Shown: positions 22,468-51,287 of the stretch, piece after piece
How the letters are laid out: the number at the start of each line of letters is the position of its first letter
Position numbering within the stretch: position 1 is the first letter of the stretch
IMG/VR virus record: IMGVR_UViG_3300029305_004519
Coordinates: 13,541-77,540 of that record
Reading direction: 5' to 3' (one strand)
DNA: 64,000 nucleotides
From: a virus
Program-made: the position numbers and the translations under genes
The notes under the pieces: generated by a model
The model's input: the letters and a program-made list of their open reading frames with translations, nothing else
The model's database searches: none
Told to the model about the DNA's origin: nothing

Positions 22468-22543
22468 GCTTTAAGTATGGCTGGGAGTGTGGGATTCGAA
22501 CCCACGCATAACCGGGTTAGAGCCGGAGGCCTTAGCCGCTTGG
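22468..22543 (-). tRNA. Amber suppressor tRNA, anticodon CUA, tRNA-Gln-like body (tRNA-Sup(CUA), predicted Gln)
   Basis: Hand-folded canonical 76-nt cloverleaf: AGGGAGT/ACTCCCA acceptor (A1·A72 mismatch, G2-C71, G3-C70), G73, encoded CCA, D-arm GCCA/AGGC, anticodon loop C-U-C-U-A-A-C (U33, C34 U35 A36), T-arm GTGGG-TTCGAAT-CCCAC. Shares TCGCCAAGCGG...CCCAGCCA features with the tRNA-Gln(UUG) at 42331-42408. Confidence 0.8.
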
Positions 22544-22602
22544 CGAACTCCCTATTGATTACATATAAATTATAATCAAAATTTTTGAAAAAATCAATTA
22601 TT

Positions 22603-24560: not shown

Positions 24561-25127
24561 TCAATCATCATTTTCTAACAGCTCCTCACATTTCTTCATT
24601 TCTGCTTTAACATCAGCAATTGCGTCATCAAGTAAAACAGGATATCCATCATGAGAGTCTACTCCAATATGATACATCCAAGGATCTCCCTTATAGAAGT
24701 TAGATGCTTGATGAGTATGCCCAAACAAATTAATCACGACCTGCCAAATTTCTTTTTCATCCAGATTATGAGTAATAATAGGATAGTGAGAGAGATAGAA
24801 ATTTAGTTTCTTATATTTTAGTCTTGCACAAAGCTGAACATCCCAGCCCATATCTCGATAAGCCTGTTCGCGCTTAGCAGTATCGTGATTTCCAAGACAT
24901 ACATGGATTTTGCCTTTGAGTTGTTTAAGAAGCGCCAAACCTCCCTCAATGTCGCCTAATACCAAATCTCCAAGAATCCATACATCATCTTCATCAGACA
25001 CTACAGAATTGAACTTTTCAATCTGCTTCATATTCATTTCATTTACATCTGCATACCCTCTGGCGCCCCAGATAAACTCACGGTCATGCCCCAGATGCAG
25101 GTCGCTAGTGATCCAAATCTTGCTCAT
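24561..25127 (-). CDS. Calcineurin-like metallophosphoesterase
   Basis: SDLHLGH, GDLV, GNHD and GHTH motifs. Confidence 0.7.
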   Translation of the reverse strand: MSKIWITSDLHLGHDREFIWGARGYADVNEMNMKQIEKFNSVVSDEDDVWILGDLVLGDIEGGLALLKQLKGKIHVCLGNHDTAKREQAYRDMGWDVQLCARLKYKKLNFYLSHYPIITHNLDEKEIWQVVINLFGHTHQASNFYKGDPWMYHIGVDSHDGYPVLLDDAIADVKAEMKKCEELLENDD

Positions 25128-25627
25128 TTTTTCTCCTCCATATTTCCATTTTCATCAACAATATAAATTTTATTATAGGTAAAAATACCTTCATGCCACT
25201 TAGGTTCTTTAAGTGCACGATACATTTTTGCAATTGCTTCAGGCGGAACATAGGCACGTCCGGCGCGCTGTGCATTGCGCTCTTGCGCAACCTCAAGAGG
25301 AACCTTAAAATAAATTACCTCAATCTCATTAGGAATAATATCCAATGCTTTAAGCAACTTCAAGCGAGCGCCATGGTTAAGATGAGTTGCGTCTGCATAA
25401 ACAGTTTCTCCAGACTTTAAAAGAGATTCAATGCTTGCTACATAAGTTTCCCAAACCTCATCTTCCTTTGAGAAATAATTATCATTCTCTTGAAGTAAAG
25501 CAAAACGAATTGCATCTCTTGAGACAATAAATTCATCTATCTTTTTATTTTGGTTAAGCCAAGTGCTTTTCCCTGAACCCGGAATACCAACCATCAATAT
25601 CAGCTTACCATTTATCTTATATTCCAT
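25124..25627 (-). CDS. P-loop polynucleotide kinase-like protein
   Basis: LMVGIPGSGKST Walker A; AAA_33/T4 PNK-kinase-like. Translationally coupled to the phosphoesterase. Confidence 0.55.
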   Translation of the reverse strand: MEYKINGKLILMVGIPGSGKSTWLNQNKKIDEFIVSRDAIRFALLQENDNYFSKEDEVWETYVASIESLLKSGETVYADATHLNHGARLKLLKALDIIPNEIEVIYFKVPLEVAQERNAQRAGRAYVPPEAIAKMYRALKEPKWHEGIFTYNKIYIVDENGNMEEKK

Positions 25628-27243: not shown

Positions 27244-28434
27244 TTAAGAATGGTATTTCAAGAGGAACTCATTACTTACAGCTTTAAAGCTCAATTCGCC
27301 ATCTTCTGAACGGAATACTAAGCCTTCACGCATACCCCCATCAATCTTTGACGGCGCGGATGCGGCAAGAGTCAACACCTCTTCACAAGTAGCAGGAAGT
27401 TCTAGGCGCCCAAGCACGGGTACAGTAGGCAATCCATAGGTATCACAAATGATCTTCATATCAATAGGATTCAGGCGTTCAACCCTACCATCCTTATAAC
27501 CATAAATAACATTAAAGATAGCCAAATCACGATTCTTCATTCCATAATCGCGCTTTTGCACAGAGGCACCGTAGATTTCGCCTTGAATGGTAAGAAATTC
27601 CAATTCCCTATCACAATTGTCCATCCATTCCATCCAACGAGCCATAACATTTTCCATATCATACTTTTCCGCCATTTCAACATAAATGTTGGTGTCATAA
27701 AAACACTTCTTATCTGGCTTATCAAATACGACATTTCGAGAGCAAACATAGAACTCTCTCTTTTTGCCTTTGCCGCGCAAGGTAAAGGTTGAAGAACTAC
27801 CATCAATTTTTTCAGTCAAGATCCAAGTTTTACGCTCTGAAGTATTGAAAAGATAAGGTAGATTTTGAACGCGCTCTTCATCAGTCTTTTTTACCCAAGC
27901 CGGCCAGCCATTTTTCTTATCTTTCTTTTTACCAAAGAAGAAGAACATTAGGCGGCGACCCCATTCGCGCTTCATTAACCAACGTGCCCACTTCTTTTTA
28001 AAGATGTCAGGTCTGCGCTGAGCCATTCTCTTATACTTGTCAGGTCCAGATCCTTTACGCTCATTATCAGCAGCTTCAGAATAAGTTACACCAAGCAACT
28101 CGGTGCAATCAACATTAGTTTCATTAGGAATTTTTACATCAAAGGCATTGATAGGAAGCGCCAAGCCTTGACTAATAACTCCAAACTTAGAAAGTTTCAT
28201 ACTCTTAACCTTAAACTTTTTAGGTGCCAAAAATGCACACCATTCCTTGTCTTCGGGTAGTTTTGAGTCAATCTCAAAATATACGCAAAGGTCTCCTGCT
28301 TTAAACTCACCGATCTTAGCGATACAAGTCCATCCGCCAATCCCAACAAGCTCTATATTATCAGCACCTTCAATAGGTCTTACCCAGTCTATACGAGTAG
28401 TATAAGCCAGTGCTCTTTTATCATTTATCAGCAT
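27244..28434 (-). CDS. ATP-dependent RNA ligase (Rnl family nucleotidyltransferase)
   Basis: Covalent nucleotidyltransferase motif I, TEKIDGSS (KxDG). 396 aa. Confidence 0.55.
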   Translation of the reverse strand: MLINDKRALAYTTRIDWVRPIEGADNIELVGIGGWTCIAKIGEFKAGDLCVYFEIDSKLPEDKEWCAFLAPKKFKVKSMKLSKFGVISQGLALPINAFDVKIPNETNVDCTELLGVTYSEAADNERKGSGPDKYKRMAQRRPDIFKKKWARWLMKREWGRRLMFFFFGKKKDKKNGWPAWVKKTDEERVQNLPYLFNTSERKTWILTEKIDGSSSTFTLRGKGKKREFYVCSRNVVFDKPDKKCFYDTNIYVEMAEKYDMENVMARWMEWMDNCDRELEFLTIQGEIYGASVQKRDYGMKNRDLAIFNVIYGYKDGRVERLNPIDMKIICDTYGLPTVPVLGRLELPATCEEVLTLAASAPSKIDGGMREGLVFRSEDGELSFKAVSNEFLLKYHS

Positions 28435-40358: not shown

Positions 40359-40443
40359 ATGGAGCTGAAGGTCCGATTCGAACGGACGCGGACTCTCGTC
40401 TCTCGCTTACAAGGCGAGTGCAATCGGCCACTATGCGACTTCA
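40359..40443 (-). tRNA. Class II tRNA (long variable arm). The canonical fold gives anticodon UGU, which is atypical.
   Basis: Acceptor GCTGAAG/CTTCAGC, U73, D-arm GCA/TGC with an 11-nt loop, anticodon stem CTCGC/GCGAG with loop CUUGUAA, a 14-nt variable arm, T-arm GTCCG-TTCGAAT-CGGAC. Directly abuts tRNA-Gly. Confidence 0.45.
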
Positions 40444-41228
40444 GCATATTAAGTTTTCAATAATCGCATAAGAAAATATATAATCACTTTAACGAGCCTT
40501 CACTCTACATCGTTTCTGAAGTGCGTTATTAACATATGTTCACGGGAGGCTGAGCAATGGGTAGCGATCCCACGCTTCTCCAATGGTTCTCTCTATCTTG
40601 CCCCGATAGGAAAGCAAGTAAATTAAACTACCACACCCTCGATCAATACTAAGGGAACTTTCACCGAGCTTCAGCATTAATTCTAAAATACCTGTTTTCA
40701 TCAAATTTGAAGCTATCTTTTATGCCCGATACGGCTACTCGCACCAGCCAAATCTGTTATAGTTTGTTACCAAACATCAACGGGAACGCTTATTTTTGAG
40801 ATACCTAGTTGATTATTCGCTTCATAACGGTTTCTCACGCCGCCAACTTTAGGTGGTATGCATCACTGCAGGGACTCTTCTCGCGCCAGATTCCTGACTG
40901 TTGTTTACGCTAAATCATCAATATGCACCATTATCCGCAACCTTTGTCAGGCATACTCGTTTATTCAGTATATTCACGAGTTTTATTTACTTTAGAGCAG
41001 TATCCCACTCTGTTTCTTTCCCCGCGGATCTGTCCTAGCCATCATGCAAGATGTCTGCACTAGGATGTTAAAGGTTTATATATTTTCTTATGCAATTATC
41101 AATGAACTTTTTTCTTTTGATTACTTAATCATTATATCATAAATTTTTTAAGTTTTCAAGAGAGAGGTGAGGCTTTAGGTCAGCCGACCGCACATCTGTT
41201 GATTGCTGGAACTTTTGCTCTTCCAAAA

Positions 41229-41305
41229 TGGTGCTTCAAATAGGATTCGAACCTATACTACCGAAGGTTTGAGCTTCGCGCCTCTGCCAATTGGGCTATT
41301 AAAGC
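41229..41305 (-). tRNA. tRNA-Leu(CAA)-like with a short (5-nt) variable arm
   Basis: Acceptor GCTTTAA/TTGAAGC, A73, Leu-type D-arm GCC-CAATTGGCAGA-GGC, anticodon stem CGAAG/CTTCG with loop CUCAAAC, variable GTAGT. Confidence 0.5.
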
Positions 41306-42571: not shown

Positions 42572-42658
42572 TGGTGAGCGTGGCGGGAATCGAACCCGCG
42601 ATGGACATAATGTCGAGGGATTAAAAGTCCCTTGTACTCGCCGCTGTACTACACGCTC
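42572..42658 (-). tRNA. Class II tRNA (long variable arm). The canonical fold gives anticodon UUU, which is atypical.
   Basis: Acceptor GAGCGTG/CACGCTC, A73, D-arm GTAC-AGCGGCGA-GTAC, anticodon stem AGGGA/TCCCT with loop CUUUUAA, a 16-nt variable arm, T-arm GCGGG-TTCGATT-CCCGC. Confidence 0.45.
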
Positions 42659-44287: not shown

Positions 44288-44363
44288 TGGCGACTCTGAG
44301 GCATTCCGACAGCCCGACCTTCGCAGTGACAGTGCGATGCTCTACCCCCTGAGCTACAGAGCC
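44288..44363 (-). tRNA. tRNA-Asp(GUC)
   Basis: Acceptor GGCTCTG/CAGAGTC, G73, D-arm GCTC-AGGGGGTA-GAGC, anticodon stem TCGCA/TGCGA with loop CUGUCAC. T-arm is irregular. Confidence 0.5.
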
Positions 44364-45961: not shown

Positions 45962-46056
45962 TGGCGGAGGAGGTAGGATTCGAACCCACGGGTCAGATCA
46001 AAGCTGACACAACAGATTTCAAGTCTGTGCGCTTATGTCCTCTTGCGCACTCCTCC
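45962..46056 (-). tRNA. tRNA-Ser(UGA)
   Basis: Acceptor GGAGGAG/CTCCTCC, G73, anticodon stem ACAGA/TCTGT with loop CUUGAAA, long variable arm. 95 nt. Confidence 0.7.
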
Positions 46057-46455
46057 ATAATGCACAGATTCTCGTACTGTGCGCAGTCCCATATGGCGCC
46101 TTGAAAAGACTGCACGAGGAATGTTTATACAGGCACATTCACTCAAACCTAACCTAGACTTCTCAATAAGGTCACACTGTGTGCTTTCTCTACTACGGCG
46201 GTTCGCACGCTTTAATGTCTCGCACAAAAGACAGCTGGCAGAGAGCGCAGGTCCCGACCCTGAGCGGATAACCGCCACATCCCTTAGCAGGGGAGTGCCG
46301 CGCCTTGCGACTTCACTCTCTATAATGTGTGTTCCACTTGCGTTTTCTCTTCTTCATCGGTTTACACACAACCTACCACTTGAAGCGCCACTAATTTATA
46401 TACCGAGTCTGGCTTTCGTCGGTGAATTACACTAATTGTGTTACTTTGCGCTGGT

Positions 46456-46613
46456 GCTACCCCCGGGACTCGAACCCGGACGCCTCTAACGAGACACTGG
46501 ATTTTTGGTGCCTGAAATGAGATTTGAACTCATAATCTGAAGCTAGGTCGCCCCAGAGTTTTCCGTTTGAGCTTATTCAAGCAAGTCCAGGGCGTCTGCC
46601 ATTCCGCCACGGT
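46456..46613 (-). ncRNA. Composite tRNA-like element: a class II tRNA interrupted in its anticodon loop by an ~85-nt insert that itself ends in a tRNA-like T-arm, acceptor and CCA
   Basis: 5' half GCTACCG..CTGGA-CUUGC..., then ...GAGTTCAAATCTCATTTCAGGCACCA, then AAAATCCAG plus variable arm GTCTC-GTTA-GAGGC, then CCGGG-TTCGAGT-CCCGG-GGGTAGC-A-CCA. Confidence 0.35.
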
Positions 46614-46626
46614 AGCATAATGCGTC

Positions 46627-46986
46627 TTACCAAGGACGCACAAAACTATACAGTTTCAATATTGGGCAACCAAGTTGCTCATAAAACTCCTCTCCAAAGA
46701 ATTGGTTAAAAGCGTAAGGAATTTCATATTCTTGATTTTTAAGCCAGCCTTTAACTTCAGTAGGATCAAGTTCGATTTCATCATCAAGTCTTACTCCAAA
46801 ATACACAAAATCTGGATCAGAATATCCATTATCAGTAATGAAATATAAATCTGGAAACTGTTCATCAAGAATATCACCCAATTCCCAAAATTCTCTTCCT
46901 GTTGCCCGAAACATAGCCGCATAATTTTCATTTGTTAAAGGAATTTGAAATCCATAAATTAAAACTGAACTATAATCAACACTCAT
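46627..46986 (-). CDS. Hypothetical protein
   Basis: 119-aa ORF, RBS present, conserved promoter upstream at about 47005-47050. Confidence 0.4.
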   Translation of the reverse strand: MSVDYSSVLIYGFQIPLTNENYAAMFRATGREFWELGDILDEQFPDLYFITDNGYSDPDFVYFGVRLDDEIELDPTEVKGWLKNQEYEIPYAFNQFFGEEFYEQLGCPILKLYSFVRPW

Positions 46987-47080: not shown

Positions 47081-47167
47081 TGGTGGGAAGGGTGGGAATT
47101 GAACCCACTGAGACCGAAGCCAACGGTGTTACAGACCGCCCCAACTCTCCTACTTTGGCGCCCGCCC
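47081..47167 (-). tRNA. tRNA-Tyr(GUA)
   Basis: Acceptor GGGCGGG/CCTTCCC (one mismatch, one GU), A73, anticodon stem GCGGT/ACCGT with loop CUGUAAC, long variable arm, T-arm GTGGG-TTCAATT-CCCAC. Confidence 0.55.
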
Positions 47168-50547: not shown

Positions 50548-50590
50548 ATAAAATGGTATTCCCTCAGAGACTCGAACTCTGGGTCTTCTA

Positions 50591-50630
50591 TAATTGATGA
50601 GGAAATTATTCCTCATCAATTAATTTTTGA
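50591..50630. terminator. Perfect 11-bp hairpin plus T-run, at the 3' end of gene 50606-51055
   Basis: TTGATGAGGAA-atta-TTCCTCATCAA followed by TTAATTTTTG. Confidence 0.45.
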
Positions 50631-51055
50631 TACTGTGCTTCAAAACAATAATCTTCTGCTAATCTTATTCCTATTTTTTGGTTATTTTTCGGTGGATCAA
50701 GCCTAATATTTAATTGTTGTGGAATACTCTCGTCGCTATCTTGAACAATATATAATCCGCACCAATTATTTTCTACGCAGTATAAGAAAAAAATATCAAT
50801 ATCGCGTGTAGAATAAGGCACACTTTTCCATGAACCTTTAGTATAGTTCGTAGTTTTAGTAGCAAATTCCATTTTTCCATCTTTAACTGCATTAGTAGCT
50901 TTAACTTGCACTCGATATATCTTATGATTTATTTCTACAACTAAATCATATCGTGCATTATTAGATAAAGGCTTGGAAACAATTGCTCCCTTAGATAAAA
51001 AATTCACCAAAGCTAATGCTTCTCCATAATCTCCAATTGAAACAGTATTCGACAT
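50606..51055 (-). CDS. Hypothetical protein
   Basis: 149-aa ORF. Confidence 0.4.
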   Translation of the reverse strand: MSNTVSIGDYGEALALVNFLSKGAIVSKPLSNNARYDLVVEINHKIYRVQVKATNAVKDGKMEFATKTTNYTKGSWKSVPYSTRDIDIFFLYCVENNWCGLYIVQDSDESIPQQLNIRLDPPKNNQKIGIRLAEDYCFEAQYQKLIDEE

Positions 51056-51287
51056 TTAAAAAGTCCTCCTTTAATATTTTATATTTTTCTGTTCACTATT
51101 ATATAAAAATTAAAGTAATATCTTTAAATAAAACTGACCAAATTTTTGTCAATAGGTTGTTTATTAGTCAGACGCTTTACCATCTAAGCTAAGGGAATAT
51201 ATTTACTTCCAACCGCCGAACGAGTAGCACGGTCATCTGGTCTCCTTTAATGGCAAGACGCTTACTACATTTCTCATGTTTTCCTTG

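Follow-up and report, generated by a model that had tools for sequence, protein, structure and literature searches.

The question raised by this locus is whether, and by what route, a tRNA gene whose anticodon is split by a second, tRNA-like sequence could still deliver a tRNA. In the window (the whole 64,000-nt stretch of viral DNA that was analysed), neither default ARAGORN nor Rfam at its gathering threshold reports a tRNA over 46452-46616. Run with intron search, ARAGORN calls a tRNA-Leu(UAA) at c[46452,46616] with an insert between positions 34 and 35. That is, the gene is a class II tRNA-Leu(UAA) of a large phage, split between U34 and A35 inside the anticodon (Table 1). A preliminary description had proposed a class II tRNA with an interruption in its anticodon loop, and all the motifs it listed are indeed present, on the minus strand; it gave no strand itself. 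Its limits, 46456-46613, hit the right locus but fall short by 3 nt in the 5′ acceptor strand and omit the ACCA at the 3′ terminus. Likewise, the separation of about 85 nt it gave is close to the 84 nt between the two anticodon-stem strands (3 + 77 + 4), but the insert itself is 77 nt long. Two ordinary adjacent tRNAs, the outcome it named as fatal to its view, are not what is found: the two units are nested.

After deletion of the 77 nt, ARAGORN calls the outer sequence as an 88-nt tRNA-Leu(taa) with the features of class II (7-bp acceptor stem, 5-bp anticodon stem, long variable arm, TTCRANY T loop and A73). The exon junction in the predicted spliced tRNA reads GCCCTGGACTT/AAAATCCAGTGTCTCGTTAGAGG (here and below, a slash marks a junction or cut), and the predicted loop, CUUAAAA, is that of the intronless genes in contigs L013 and L048. 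The outer acceptor stem contains a single G.G mismatch, at 7:66, which is also present in the intronless allele. In the minimum-free-energy fold of the 165-nt RNA, a cloverleaf is formed and a second tRNA-like branch emerges from its anticodon loop. UUA and UUG make up 38% of the leucine codons in the phage, and no other UUA-reading tRNA was found in the window by ARAGORN or Rfam. The phage has a G+C content of 38%, the nearest cultured relatives of its helicase infect Bacillota, and a search of deposited phage genomes gave no DNA similarity match to the window.

Table 1. Features of the interrupted tRNA gene and of candidate processing genes in the window
Feature	Position	Strand	Description
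Interrupted tRNA-Leu(UAA) gene	46452..46616	minus	165 nt = 88-nt tRNA + 77-nt insert; ARAGORN intron search, extraction
5′ exon	46583..46616	minus	Acceptor GCTACCG, D arm, anticodon stem CTGGA, loop C32-U33-U34
3′ exon, first part	46452..46505	minus	A35-A36-A37-A38, anticodon stem TCCAG, long variable arm
3′ exon, rest	46452..46505	minus	T arm CCGGG-TTCGAGT-CCCGG, acceptor GGGTAGC, A73, CCA
tRNA-shaped insert (intron)	46506..46582	minus	77 nt, G+1 to CCA76 of the inner unit; boundary from L048
Inner acceptor 5′ strand GCTTGAA	46576..46582	minus	G+1 directly after outer U34; pairs 7/7 with 46510-46516
Inner 8-bp hairpin, 6-nt loop	46536..46557	minus	Degenerate anticodon-arm remnant; from fold
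Inner T arm ATGAG-TTCAAAT-CTCAT	46517..46533	minus	Stacked straight onto inner acceptor stem
Inner acceptor 3′ strand TTCAGGC, discriminator A73, CCA	46506..46516	minus	3′ boundary of insert right after CCA
ATP-dependent RNA ligase, Rnl5 type (candidate sealing enzyme)	27244..28434	minus	Pfam PF21189 + PF09414
Metallophosphoesterase (candidate end-healing)	24561-25127	minus	Pfam
P-loop AAA_33 kinase (candidate end-healing)	25124-25627	minus	Pfam

The insert starts with GCTTGAAT and ends with GGCACCA. All seven acceptor pairs and all five T-stem pairs of the inner unit are formed, the T loop (TTCAAAT) has 7 nt, and A73-CCA follows. The insert scores 26.9 bits against the Rfam tRNA model (RF00005), below the 29-bit gathering cut-off, and the match falls in the acceptor stem, T arm and discriminator. 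This bears out the earlier suggestion, made along with a call for a check by tRNA and intron models, that a tRNA 3′ terminus (here ACCA) closes the insert; no intron family was matched. The key anatomical fact, that the insert corresponds exactly to +1 to CCA76 of the inner unit, had been missed. The rest of the inner unit folds as an unpaired 18-nt segment and an 8-bp hairpin, without a canonical 7-nt loop, U33 or a D arm, and ARAGORN run on the insert reports no tRNA. The features of a substrate for RNase P and 3′-end enzymes, i.e. U-1, G+1:C72, a 12-bp acceptor/T stack and a single-stranded RCCA, are all present and conserved. A search for further copies of the insert, as the preliminary description had advised, found none in the window, and rule-based scans of the window found no further nested tRNA.

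The identical gene occurs in at least eight independent assemblies from JGI and ENA (contigs L004-L009, L011 and L012), with JGI 3300029705 and 3300032167 and ENA ERZ27248314 among the samples that contain this phage, and L049 and L050 also carry the insert, with a G.U to A-U change within the stem of the inner 8-bp hairpin. An intronless allele, L048, has near-identical exons (its 5′ exon differs from that of the window by only a 1-nt indel in the D loop) joined at the exact junction GGACTT/AAAATCC, and can be told from the gene of the window by its variable arm; it comes from JGI sample 3300041682 and, were that sample RNA, the allele could represent a spliced product. Aligned with L048, the window shows a clean 77-nt difference without duplication or flanking direct repeats, and since the flanking bases differ, the boundary of the insert cannot slide and is unambiguous. 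L013 is a further intronless orthologue. The gene directly upstream of the tRNA, orf119, was considered as an intron-linked factor and rejected, as it is found both with and without the intron. HNH genes adjoin an intronless tRNA (L013) as well as an interrupted one (L018), in no clear pattern, and the tRNA array is absent from L001-L003, which are related to the window through a Band_7 protein.

Twelve distinct relatives of the composite tRNA, on large phage or metagenome contigs from IMG/VR and other metagenomes, carry inserts of 49-78 nt at the same site. For the inner 12-bp minihelix and ACCA, 204 of 204 cells are paired across the relatives, with compensatory changes in 8 of the 12 minihelix pairs; nine of the 12 family members were retrieved with a pattern in which GGACTTG and GGCACCAAAAATCC were set beforehand, so that base invariance there is imposed rather than observed in those nine, while the window, L014, L018 and L049 are free of this constraint. 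The covariation score of the inner minihelix was reached by none of 500 shuffles, and controls slid along the alignment paired at only 32-51%. The inner T arm keeps its geometry (5-bp stem, 7-nt loop) in all 12 relatives. The D and anticodon parts of the inserts decay, vary or are deleted, and where these arms are gone (L018, L022 and L028) ACCA and the 7 + 5-bp geometry persist; ACCA is invariant even in relatives reduced to a minihelix of 49-50 nt. Full pairing together with compensatory changes indicates that the inner minihelix is under selection. The outer acceptor stem, whose halves are separated by the insert, pairs in 131 of 132 cells with compensatory changes in 11 of 12 pairs, a score again reached by 0 of 500 shuffles. 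Judging from this covariation across the split, and from the lack of another UUA-reading tRNA in the window, the outer tRNA is under selection as well.

The design goes beyond chance. A strict rule (7-bp acceptor stem, hairpin of 5 bp, NCCA, and a 5-bp stem on the flanks that leaves 7 loop nucleotides) gave no match when 397 kb of sequence was shuffled; applied to real DNA, it picked out 28 true composites along with seven matches whose junction lacked an outer tRNA. When the rule was loosened but ARAGORN had to recognise the spliced product, composites alone were returned. Gapped-pattern matches (9/9 in genome_contigs and 7/16 in the metagenome set) were rejected as chance hits in coding DNA without a tRNA, and exact-pattern scans of IMG/VR matched neither the 5′ junction, nor the outer 3′ end, nor the 3′ end of the 78-nt-type intron.

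The homologous inserts of L033, L020, L035, L034 and L021 score 28-45 bits as tRNA, four of them at or above the 29-bit cut-off (L033, 44.9; L020, 36.5; L035, 34.6; L034, 31.4). That of L033 is a complete cloverleaf, a tRNA(UCA), which argues that the insert is tRNA-derived and agrees with the nested tRNA that the preliminary description had listed among its options. Contig L022 alone encodes four nested tRNAs, with inserts at 34/35 in Leu(UAA) and Thr(UGU), at 35/36 in Asn(GUU) and at 36/37 in Ile(UAU), each insert preceded by U and ending in NCCA. In L014, L034 and L036, the introns are 95-99% identical whereas the exons are 71-76% identical; conversely, L020 and L034 share 90% of their exon sequence but only 59% of their intron. 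Such discordant histories point to mobility. They suggest a mobile or exchangeable insert that passes between the tRNA genes of related phages, which suits another of the earlier options, a tRNA-derived mobile mini-element. A possible origin of the intron is the joining of a mature tRNA, by a repair ligase, into an anticodon loop that had been cut.

Literature searches on nested tRNAs, tRNA-like introns and RNase P-dependent phage splicing brought up no precedent; a later one led to a paper on Lak megaphages. It describes 'enigmatic' short inserts in the anticodon loops of tRNA genes of Lak megaphages, with alleles that have or lack the intron and introns more conserved than their surroundings; the authors remarked that the intron of tRNA-Thr(TGT) 'itself may encode a tRNA', and gave neither a mechanism nor a defining architecture (Devoto et al. 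2019, Nat Microbiol, PMC6784885). When we re-analysed Table S6 of that paper, four of the four listed introns (Tyr, Phe, Thr and Gly) were found to end in a tRNA-like minihelix. The window shares the insert in the anticodon loop, the intron-plus and intron-minus alleles and the 3′ tRNA-like unit. However, the Lak introns are 79-114 nt long, lack CCA, end 1-3 nt after the acceptor stem and have an extra 5′ module of 27-31 nt before the tRNA-like unit (a 5-bp hairpin with a 6-nt loop and an A/U linker, as we read the published sequences, rather than a published definition). The window insert has no such module: it begins at G+1 and consists of exactly one unit. Moreover, the host tRNA here is Leu(UAA), and the phage, with helicase kin that infect Bacillota, has a G+C content of 38% against about 26% in Lak phages. 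The window insert is a cleaner, previously undescribed variant of the Lak-type tRNA introns.

We favour, with a probability of roughly 55%, the interpretation that this is a working tRNA-Leu(UAA) gene from which the tRNA-derived insert is cut out by tRNA end-processing enzymes, the exons then being ligated. Bacterial RNase P prefers U-1, G+1:C72 and RCCA, accepts acceptor/T minihelices, and leaves a leader with a 3′-OH. From the sequences we infer the following route. The insert would be a tRNA mimic pared down to what end-processing enzymes read, namely U-1, G+1:C72, the 12-bp minihelix, the 7-nt loop and A73-CCA, and the 165-nt precursor would fold into the cloverleaf with its second tRNA-like branch. 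RNase P would cut at U-1/G+1, on the 5′ side of the inner G+1, leaving exon 1 with a 3′-OH on U34, and an endonuclease would cut right after the inner CCA, so that exon 2 begins with a 5′-phosphate on A35. The outer acceptor, D, T and anticodon stems would hold the exons together as a nicked tRNA, in which an ATP-dependent RNA ligase, possibly the Rnl5-type enzyme of the phage, would close the loop to CUUAAAA; a kinase and a phosphoesterase could serve as back-up should the ends require healing. The excised 77-nt tRNA-like RNA would be a by-product or a second product. Bacillota have no RNase E and Bacillus RNase Z is inhibited by CCA, which, for a Bacillota-like host, counts against either enzyme as the one that would cut after the CCA. 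In E. coli, RNase E cuts proL at GACCA/AAAAUC, directly after the CCA (PMC5291269), and the junction here reads CACCA/AAAAUCC. Given their 27-31-nt module, an RNase P cut alone cannot set the 5′ splice site of the Lak introns, and Lak-type and window-type introns alike may involve another nuclease, in place of RNase P or besides it.

The candidate ligase has an N-terminal OB fold and an adenylyltransferase domain, its best solved relative is the Naegleria gruberi RNA ligase (5cot, E 8.6e-38), and L021 has a homologue of 71% identity 8 kb away from its composite tRNA. The composites of L020, L034 and L022 have AAA_33 kinase genes at a distance of 3.5-7.5 kb, the one in L034 with an additional HD-domain match, and a gene for a MazF/PemK-like endoribonuclease adjoins the composite of L026. 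From this setting we infer a link of ligase, kinase and phosphoesterase to the intron; since RNA-repair genes are common in tRNA-rich large phages, proximity as such is weak evidence. T4 Pnkp and Rnl1 and the bacterial RNA repair systems, which rejoin tRNA halves broken in the anticodon loop, involve an analogous set of genes. However, T4-type repair mends the damage done by host anticodon nucleases, and we know of no such system that processes genome-encoded interruptions. The ligase here is also of the Rnl5 type, and no Rnl1 homologue was recognised: T4 Rnl1 is a specialist for anticodon loops, and Rnl5-type ligases such as NgrRnl have been characterised as nick sealers in duplexes. A Pfam scan of about 40 ORFs of the window found no tRNA splicing endonuclease.

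The cuts might instead be made by a dedicated phage or host nuclease that recognises the minihelix and leaves 2′,3′-cyclic phosphate and 5′-OH ends, which the kinase and phosphoesterase would heal before the ligase seals them. Heal-and-seal is the classic pathway used against anticodon nucleases, the window encodes the kinase, phosphoesterase and ligase it calls for, and the kinases (with the HD domain in L034) and the MazF/PemK-like enzyme near other composites, as well as the Lak-type introns that RNase P alone does not explain, fit such a nuclease. We nevertheless hold it to be unlikely, as the conserved U-1, G+1:C72, 12-bp stack and ACCA are determinants of RNase P and 3′-end enzymes, and no candidate nuclease consistently co-occurs with the composites, orf119 being independent of the intron. 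It is also conceivable that the inner RNA is the real product (a decoy, a regulator or a real tRNA) and that the outer halves are mainly a structured leader and trailer. The complete tRNA(UCA) in L033 and the conserved minihelix and CCA would agree with this, as would sub-threshold matches beside several composites to YrlA, a Y-RNA-like family whose members have a tRNA-like domain. However, a leader and a trailer would not need the isotype features of the outer tRNA (A73, variable arm, T loop, anticodon-loop nucleotides), and most inserts are without an anticodon loop, some being only 49-50 nt long; we regard this as improbable. Release of an inner product and splicing of the outer tRNA are mutually compatible.

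Were the insert a selfish tRNA-derived element that inactivated the gene, the locus would be a young, unspliced pseudogene, as the presence/absence alleles in close relatives, the discordant histories of introns and exons and the general view that enzymatic tRNA splicing is unknown in bacteria might suggest. Yet 12 divergent composites keep all outer stems, with compensatory changes across the insert, and retain the exact 3 + 4 loop nucleotides that rebuild CUUAAAA; the inserts degenerate in their middle part and never at their ends, and four isotypes in one contig share the design, which is unexpected for a dead gene and makes inactivation decidedly improbable. A self-splicing or self-cleaving intron, either a mini group I-like element or a small nucleolytic ribozyme, is brought to mind by the insertion point, U34/A35, which we take to be the site of the group I intron of cyanobacterial and plastid tRNA-Leu(UAA); the gene is the same, and precise removal is likewise needed to rebuild the anticodon. 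Group I introns, though, are ribozymes that splice themselves; they exceed ~200 nt, possess a P1-P9 core with a conserved catalytic P3-P9 portion, and finish with a G. The inserts span 49-78 nt, have the tRNA minihelix as their only conserved structure and lack the terminal G, that of the window having no such core and ending in A. The 5′ exon ends in U, as for the U.G pair at a group I 5′ splice site, yet the insert has no internal guide sequence, and in Rfam none of the ribozyme and intron families gave a match with E up to 10. A ribozyme is thus highly improbable, in keeping with the preliminary remark that a group I intron would need a longer insert. For the other interrupted tRNA (50554-51198), too, a group I explanation found no support in Rfam. 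Finally, that the locus arose by faulty assembly, resembles a nested tRNA by chance or marks an integration-site scar is scarcely credible: the identical sequence recurs in at least eight independent assemblies with relatives in IMG/VR and other metagenomes, shuffles yield no matches, and the insertion is clean and without flanking direct repeats. A recombination scar, as suggested earlier, is further contradicted by the structure conserved with compensatory changes in 12 relatives. The L048 alignment shows no duplicated tRNA segment of the kind that an element integrated at an attachment site would leave.

Removal of the insert by end-processing enzymes and a ligase would matter beyond this gene, since the documented tRNA introns of bacteria and of bacterial viruses are, to our knowledge, self-splicing ribozymes. 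If true, intron removal by nuclease and ligase would add a third way of splicing tRNAs, independent of the other two, and phage RNA ligases and end-healing enzymes would gain a housekeeping role beyond damage repair. More tentatively, large phages might possess a previously unrecognised, non-ribozyme form of bacterial tRNA splicing, in which the processing sites of the mimic itself (RNase P and a post-CCA endonuclease) are the splice sites, a phage ligase joins the exons and the mobile intron jumps from one anticodon loop to another, always following U; as part of this tentative picture, some phages might deliver a second functional tRNA, e.g. the UCA cloverleaf of L033, from within the first. 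For the 'enigmatic' tRNA introns described in megaphages in 2019, removal of this kind provides a concrete explanation that can be put to the test. The graded family, from a full nested tRNA to a 49-nt minihelix, would reveal which tRNA features the processing machinery needs, and provides a natural counterpart to engineered tRNA scaffolds and tRNA-punctuated guide-RNA arrays. Standard annotation overlooks such genes, here the sole UUA-reading tRNA found in the window, and phage tRNA repertoires and codon-supply analyses are consequently biased.

Among known systems, the closest analogue for the working of the element would be tRNA punctuation, plant mitochondrial t-elements and the MALAT1 mascRNA, where a tRNA fold embedded in a longer RNA directs precise cuts by RNase P and RNase Z at its +1 position and 3′ end and thereby sets the ends of the RNAs on either side; these systems free the flanking RNAs separately, whereas here the flanks would need to be rejoined. 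Split and permuted tRNAs (Nanoarchaeum equitans, Cyanidioschyzon merolae) also have disrupted genes and unconventional processing, permuted pre-tRNAs being cut at the tRNA ends by RNase P and tRNase Z. The halves in the window, however, are contiguous and in normal order, with no circular intermediate or bulge-helix-bulge, so that the permuted tRNA proposed earlier does not apply. Archaeal and eukaryal tRNA introns are similarly short, non-self-splicing and located in the anticodon loop, and are removed, as the insert here would be, by protein or RNP enzymes before the ligation of exon halves held by the tRNA body, but they lie at 37/38 rather than 34/35, and the context here is a bacterial virus. 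In a bulge-helix-bulge, the splice sites lie in 3-nt bulges 4 bp apart. Such an intron was rejected for the window, where, in the covarying structure, a single internal loop separates the inner acceptor stem from the outer anticodon stem and contains both junctions, which face each other, unstaggered, across 3 and 8 nt.

The window contains an array of about 27 tRNA genes at 40.1-51.4 kb (ARAGORN/Rfam), all on the minus strand and nearly all with an encoded CCA. Between tRNA-Ser (45962-46056) and tRNA-Tyr (47081-47167) in this array, no gene was found by ARAGORN with default settings or by Rfam at the gathering threshold. When the intron search of ARAGORN was enabled, a tRNA-Leu(UAA) gene was predicted there on the minus strand, at c[46452,46616], in which an 88-nt class II tRNA is interrupted by 77 nt, inserted between positions 34 and 35. 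A preliminary description, made from the sequence alone, had placed a tRNA interrupted in its anticodon loop at 46456-46613; the locus was right and all of the listed motifs are present, but the 5′ end was short by 3 nt and the 3′ end lacked the final ACCA. The same description had named two ordinary adjacent tRNAs as a sign of wrong boundaries. These were not predicted; instead, all 165 nt together fold, at minimum free energy, into a cloverleaf from whose anticodon loop a second tRNA-like branch extends, in agreement with its suggestion of a nested tRNA. The first nucleotide of the insert is G+1 of a 7-bp acceptor stem (GCTTGAA paired with TTCAGGC), on which a T arm (ATGAG-TTCAAAT-CTCAT) is directly stacked, and A73-CCA forms the 3′ end. 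An 8-bp hairpin with a 6-nt loop replaces the anticodon arm, no convincing D arm was found in the insert, and the score against the Rfam tRNA model is 26.9 bits, slightly below the 29-bit cut-off.

Coordinates of the interrupted tRNA-Leu gene and of other features in the window and on related contigs (L numbers)
Feature	Sequence	Position	Strand	Remark
Exon 1	window	46583-46616	-	confirmed by extraction
Insert	window	46506-46582	-	confirmed by extraction
Exon 2	window	46452-46505	-	confirmed by extraction
Neighbour protein ORF	window	46627-46986		119 aa
26-nt intergenic motif	window	46397-46422	-	small hairpin, then TATATA
Metallophosphoesterase	window	24561-25127	-	adjacent to AAA_33 kinase
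AAA_33 P-loop kinase	window	25124-25627	-	adjacent to metallophosphoesterase
Rnl5-type RNA ligase	window	27244-28434	-	best solved relative Naegleria gruberi RNA ligase, E 8.6e-38
Second interrupted tRNA	window	50554-51198	-	76-nt tRNA, 569-nt insert (ARAGORN -i)
PF11645 ORF	window	50606-51055		149 aa, in 569-nt insert
Interrupted tRNA with PF11645-type ORF	L013	16055-16624
Interrupted tRNA with PF11645-type ORF	L018	5177-5717
CUA-anticodon tRNA	window	22478-22553	-	ARAGORN label 'Pyl'
ROOL RNA	window	40474-41088	-	RF03087, 175 bits (gathering cut-off 99)
Unusual tRNA bodies	window	40360-40445, 41229-41305, 42572-42658	-
tRNA found by Rfam	window	44291-44363	-	44.9 bits
Vault shoulder ORF	window	30716-33283	-	855 aa, PF11978
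Band_7/flotillin protein	window	37476-39014	-	512 aa
Nested tRNA-Leu(UAA)	L022			insertion 34/35, insert 50 nt
Nested tRNA-Thr(UGU)	L022			insertion 34/35, insert 129 nt
Nested tRNA-Asn(GUU)	L022			insertion 35/36, insert 60 nt, G73
Nested tRNA-Ile(UAU)	L022			insertion 36/37, insert 50 nt
Nested tRNAs, CUA suppressor tRNA, tmRNA	L022	1060-4521, 6609-6952
Cloverleaf insert	L033	1332-1405	-	UCA anticodon
PemK/MazF-like protein	L026	831-1451	-
YrlA sub-threshold match	L034	4125-4228
YrlA sub-threshold match	L035	4605-4713
YrlA sub-threshold match	L020	7686-7957
YrlA sub-threshold match	L026	1468-1586
YrlA sub-threshold match	L022	7159-7230

Related phages were reached via homologues of the 119-aa protein encoded just upstream of the composite gene. 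This protein is present on nine further contigs (JGI and ENA assemblies), and the identical 165-nt gene is found in eight of them, which are those extending far enough to include the locus. In L049 and L050 (neighbour protein 73% identical) the same 77-nt insert carries three substitutions, including G1:C72 to G.U and, within the 8-bp hairpin, G.U to A-U. L048 (83%), a contig that may derive from DNA or from RNA, has almost the same exons and no insert, the junction reading GGACTT/AAAATCC. A different 78-nt insert occupies the same site in L014-L017 (81%), L018 (73%) has a 49-nt insert, and in L013 (62%; a GenBank MAG) the tRNA-Leu(UAA) gene has no intron and its loop is CUUAAAA. Removal of the insert restores exactly the loop of the intronless genes, and the 77-nt limits cannot slide because the bases flanking each boundary differ. 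A conserved 26-nt intergenic motif, CCGACGAAAGCCAGACTCGGTATATA, occurs once in the window and also just downstream of the tRNA-Leu genes of L013 and L018, phages with differing tRNA genes; a role as promoter or processing signal is possible.

All three insert versions (77, 78 and 49 nt) share GGACTT/G ... GGCACCA/AAAATCC, and a gapped pattern built from this sequence retrieved true composites on three IMG/VR and nine metagenome contigs, together with 16 chance matches in coding DNA that include all nine from bacterial and archaeal genomes. The 12 distinct composites have inserts of 49, 50, 67, 71, 74, 76, 77 or 78 nt in class II outer tRNAs (83-94 nt), except for class I (77 nt) in L018, L021 and L033. 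In every one of them the inner acceptor stem pairs at 7/7 positions and is abutted by a 5-bp stem with a 7-nt loop, followed by A73-CCA, and the outer anticodon stem pairs at 5/5. In a 52-column core alignment 204 of 204 cells pair, with compensatory changes in 8 of the 12 inner minihelix pairs, the first three inner and last three outer anticodon-stem pairs carrying no weight because they were fixed by the search pattern in 9 of the 12 members. None of 500 shuffles reached the observed values, and slid controls paired in only 32-51%. The variable part is the middle of the insert: that of L033 is a full cloverleaf (Rfam 44.9 bits; tRNA(UCA) by ARAGORN), those of L020, L035 and L034 score 31-37 bits and that of L021 28 bits, and in L018, L022 and L028 the insert is reduced to a minihelix and a 14-15-nt linker. 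The inserts, which range from full cloverleaf to minihelix, therefore derive from tRNAs, and nothing but the acceptor/T stack and ACCA has been retained by selection. The L033 cloverleaf, nested inside a class I tRNA(UAA), would read UGA and has C, not U, at position 33; here a working suppressor tRNA may be released out of another tRNA.

The outer gene is not in decay. Its acceptor stem halves, parted by the insert, covary at all seven pairs, and across the outer acceptor and T stems 131 of 132 cells pair, with 11 of 12 pairs compensatory. UUA and UUG make up 38% of the leucine codons in the large ORFs of the window, where no other UUA-reading tRNA was found by ARAGORN or Rfam. We put at about 0.9 the probability that the composite is a real interruption, under selection, in a gene that functions. 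L014, L034 and L036 share 95-99% identity in their introns and 71-76% in their exons, while L020 and L034 share 90% identity in the exons and only 59% in the introns; furthermore, at one and the same locus related phages differ in intron type or lack the intron altogether. This discordance and variation argue that the insert has been exchanged between tRNA genes. Of the earlier proposal of a tRNA-derived mobile element, derivation from a tRNA thus holds, given the L033 cloverleaf, and mobility is probable; the gene is neither permuted nor a recombination scar, as had also been considered.

A rule-based scan for composites gave no match in shuffles of 397 kb and, with the additional requirement that ARAGORN recognise the spliced product, returned composites only, in real DNA. 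The window has a single nested tRNA, and L022, a 192-kb metagenome contig, has four, in which the position of insertion within the loop varies; every insert is preceded by U, has +1 of a 7-bp stem as its first base and NCCA at its 3′ end. L022 also carries a CUA suppressor tRNA and a tmRNA gene (61 bits).

The insertion site, U34/A35, is also that of the cyanobacterial tRNA-Leu group I intron, but the insert is no group I intron, matching no Rfam intron or ribozyme family at E up to 10, and by its fold and covarying structure no bulge-helix-bulge intron. Targeted searches found no literature on nested tRNAs or RNase P-dependent splicing. Nearest in mechanism are tRNA punctuation, t-elements and mascRNA, in which RNase P and RNase Z are guided to their cut sites by a tRNA-like fold; the window element would add T4-style sealing of the anticodon loop. 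Devoto et al. (2019) described 'enigmatic introns' in Lak megaphage tRNAs, noted that the tRNA-Thr(TGT) intron, for which alleles with and without exist, may itself encode a tRNA, and reported no Rfam match for the others (PMC6784885). Our re-analysis of the four introns listed in Table S6 of PMC6784885 (Tyr, Phe, Thr, Gly) showed that all end in a 7-bp acceptor plus 5-bp T-stem minihelix with a TTCGAAT-type loop, preceded by a conserved 27-31-nt module (a hairpin with a 6-nt loop and an A/U linker), and lack CCA. This shared architecture of 5′ hairpin, A/U linker and tRNA-like minihelix is unreported. Shifting each Lak intron by one nucleotide gives canonical A37-A38 loops and places its 3′ end at the discriminator of the tRNA-like unit; in a tRNA that has no encoded CCA, RNase Z cuts at this position. 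Compared with the Lak introns, the window element is simpler, its intron spanning a single tRNA-like unit (+1 to CCA76), and both the tRNA and the phage that carry it are different. Introns of this general kind had been glimpsed before but lacked an explanation, and the window element adds a simpler variant.

The best explanation of the composites, as read from their sequences, is a tRNA-shaped intervening sequence that would be removed by tRNA-processing nucleases and a ligase. The conserved features of the inserts, namely U at -1, G+1:C72, the 12-bp acceptor/T stack and single-stranded ACCA, are the determinants of bacterial RNase P, for which minihelices, too, are substrates. Its predicted cut separates U34 from G+1 and would give exon 1 a 3′-OH end. 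The 3′ boundary of the inserts is always directly after CCA, where an endonuclease would cut to leave exon 2 with a 5′-phosphate. RNase Z-type cuts after CCA are known in Thermotoga and for E. coli RNase BN. E. coli RNase E cleaves proL endonucleolytically right after CCA, at GACCA/AAAAUC (PMC5291269), compared with CACCA/AAAAUCC at the 3′ junction in the window. Held by the outer stems, the two exons would form a nicked tRNA with the ends that an ATP-dependent RNA ligase requires. The candidate for this step is the Rnl5-type ligase of the window; homologues of the window's RNA-repair genes are encoded no more than a few kb from the composites of L020, L021, L022 and L034. The pathway has weak points: the nearest cultured relatives of the phage helicase are from phages of Bacillota, which are not known to have the RNase E that could make the post-CCA cut; Rnl5 enzymes have been characterised on duplex nicks, not loops; and RNA-repair genes are common in tRNA-rich phages, which weakens the argument from gene proximity. 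The specific enzymes named here are tentative, at somewhat short of even odds.

The metallophosphoesterase, AAA_33 kinase and Rnl5-type ligase of the window make up a full set of genes for RNA healing and sealing, at a distance of 18-22 kb from the tRNA array. In L026, a protein with a PemK/MazF-like endoribonuclease domain is encoded directly beside the interrupted tRNA-Leu. Sub-threshold matches (35-44 bits; cut-off 69) to YrlA, a Y-RNA-like family with a tRNA-like domain, adjoin interrupted tRNA-Leu genes and are accompanied by AAA_33 kinase genes, that of L034 also with an HD domain; together these may represent a phage RNA-repair or Y-RNA module.

A second interrupted tRNA, with good acceptor and T arms, is predicted in the window; its anticodon-loop insert carries a PD-(D/E)XK (PF11645) ORF, a hairpin at the end, and sequences that resemble a promoter and an RBS. 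PF11645 is the family of the intron-encoded endonuclease I-Ssp6803I; no group I match was obtained for this tRNA with Rfam at E up to 10. Homologous ORFs lie inside predicted tRNA-Thr and tRNA-Asp introns of two related phages. The window also encodes an amber suppressor tRNA, and of 18 large ORFs none ends in TAG (TAA 14, TGA 4); the phage may have recoded TAG, like Lak and other phages that use alternative codes. A ROOL RNA lies inside the tRNA array. Three tRNAs of the window have unusual bodies: tRNA-Thr(UGU) (40360-40445, 86 nt) and tRNA-Lys(UUU) (42572-42658, 87 nt) have long variable arms, and a tRNA whose anticodon is CAA (Leu) is of class I (41229-41305, 77 nt), comparable to the class I interrupted UAA tRNAs of L018, L021 and L033. 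One tRNA, detected by Rfam and missed by ARAGORN, has the sequence of a tRNA-Asp(GUC) whose T arm is atypical. An ORF with a major-vault-protein shoulder domain and a Band_7/flotillin protein are unusual phage cargo; Band_7 genes are also found near the composites in L021 and L033.
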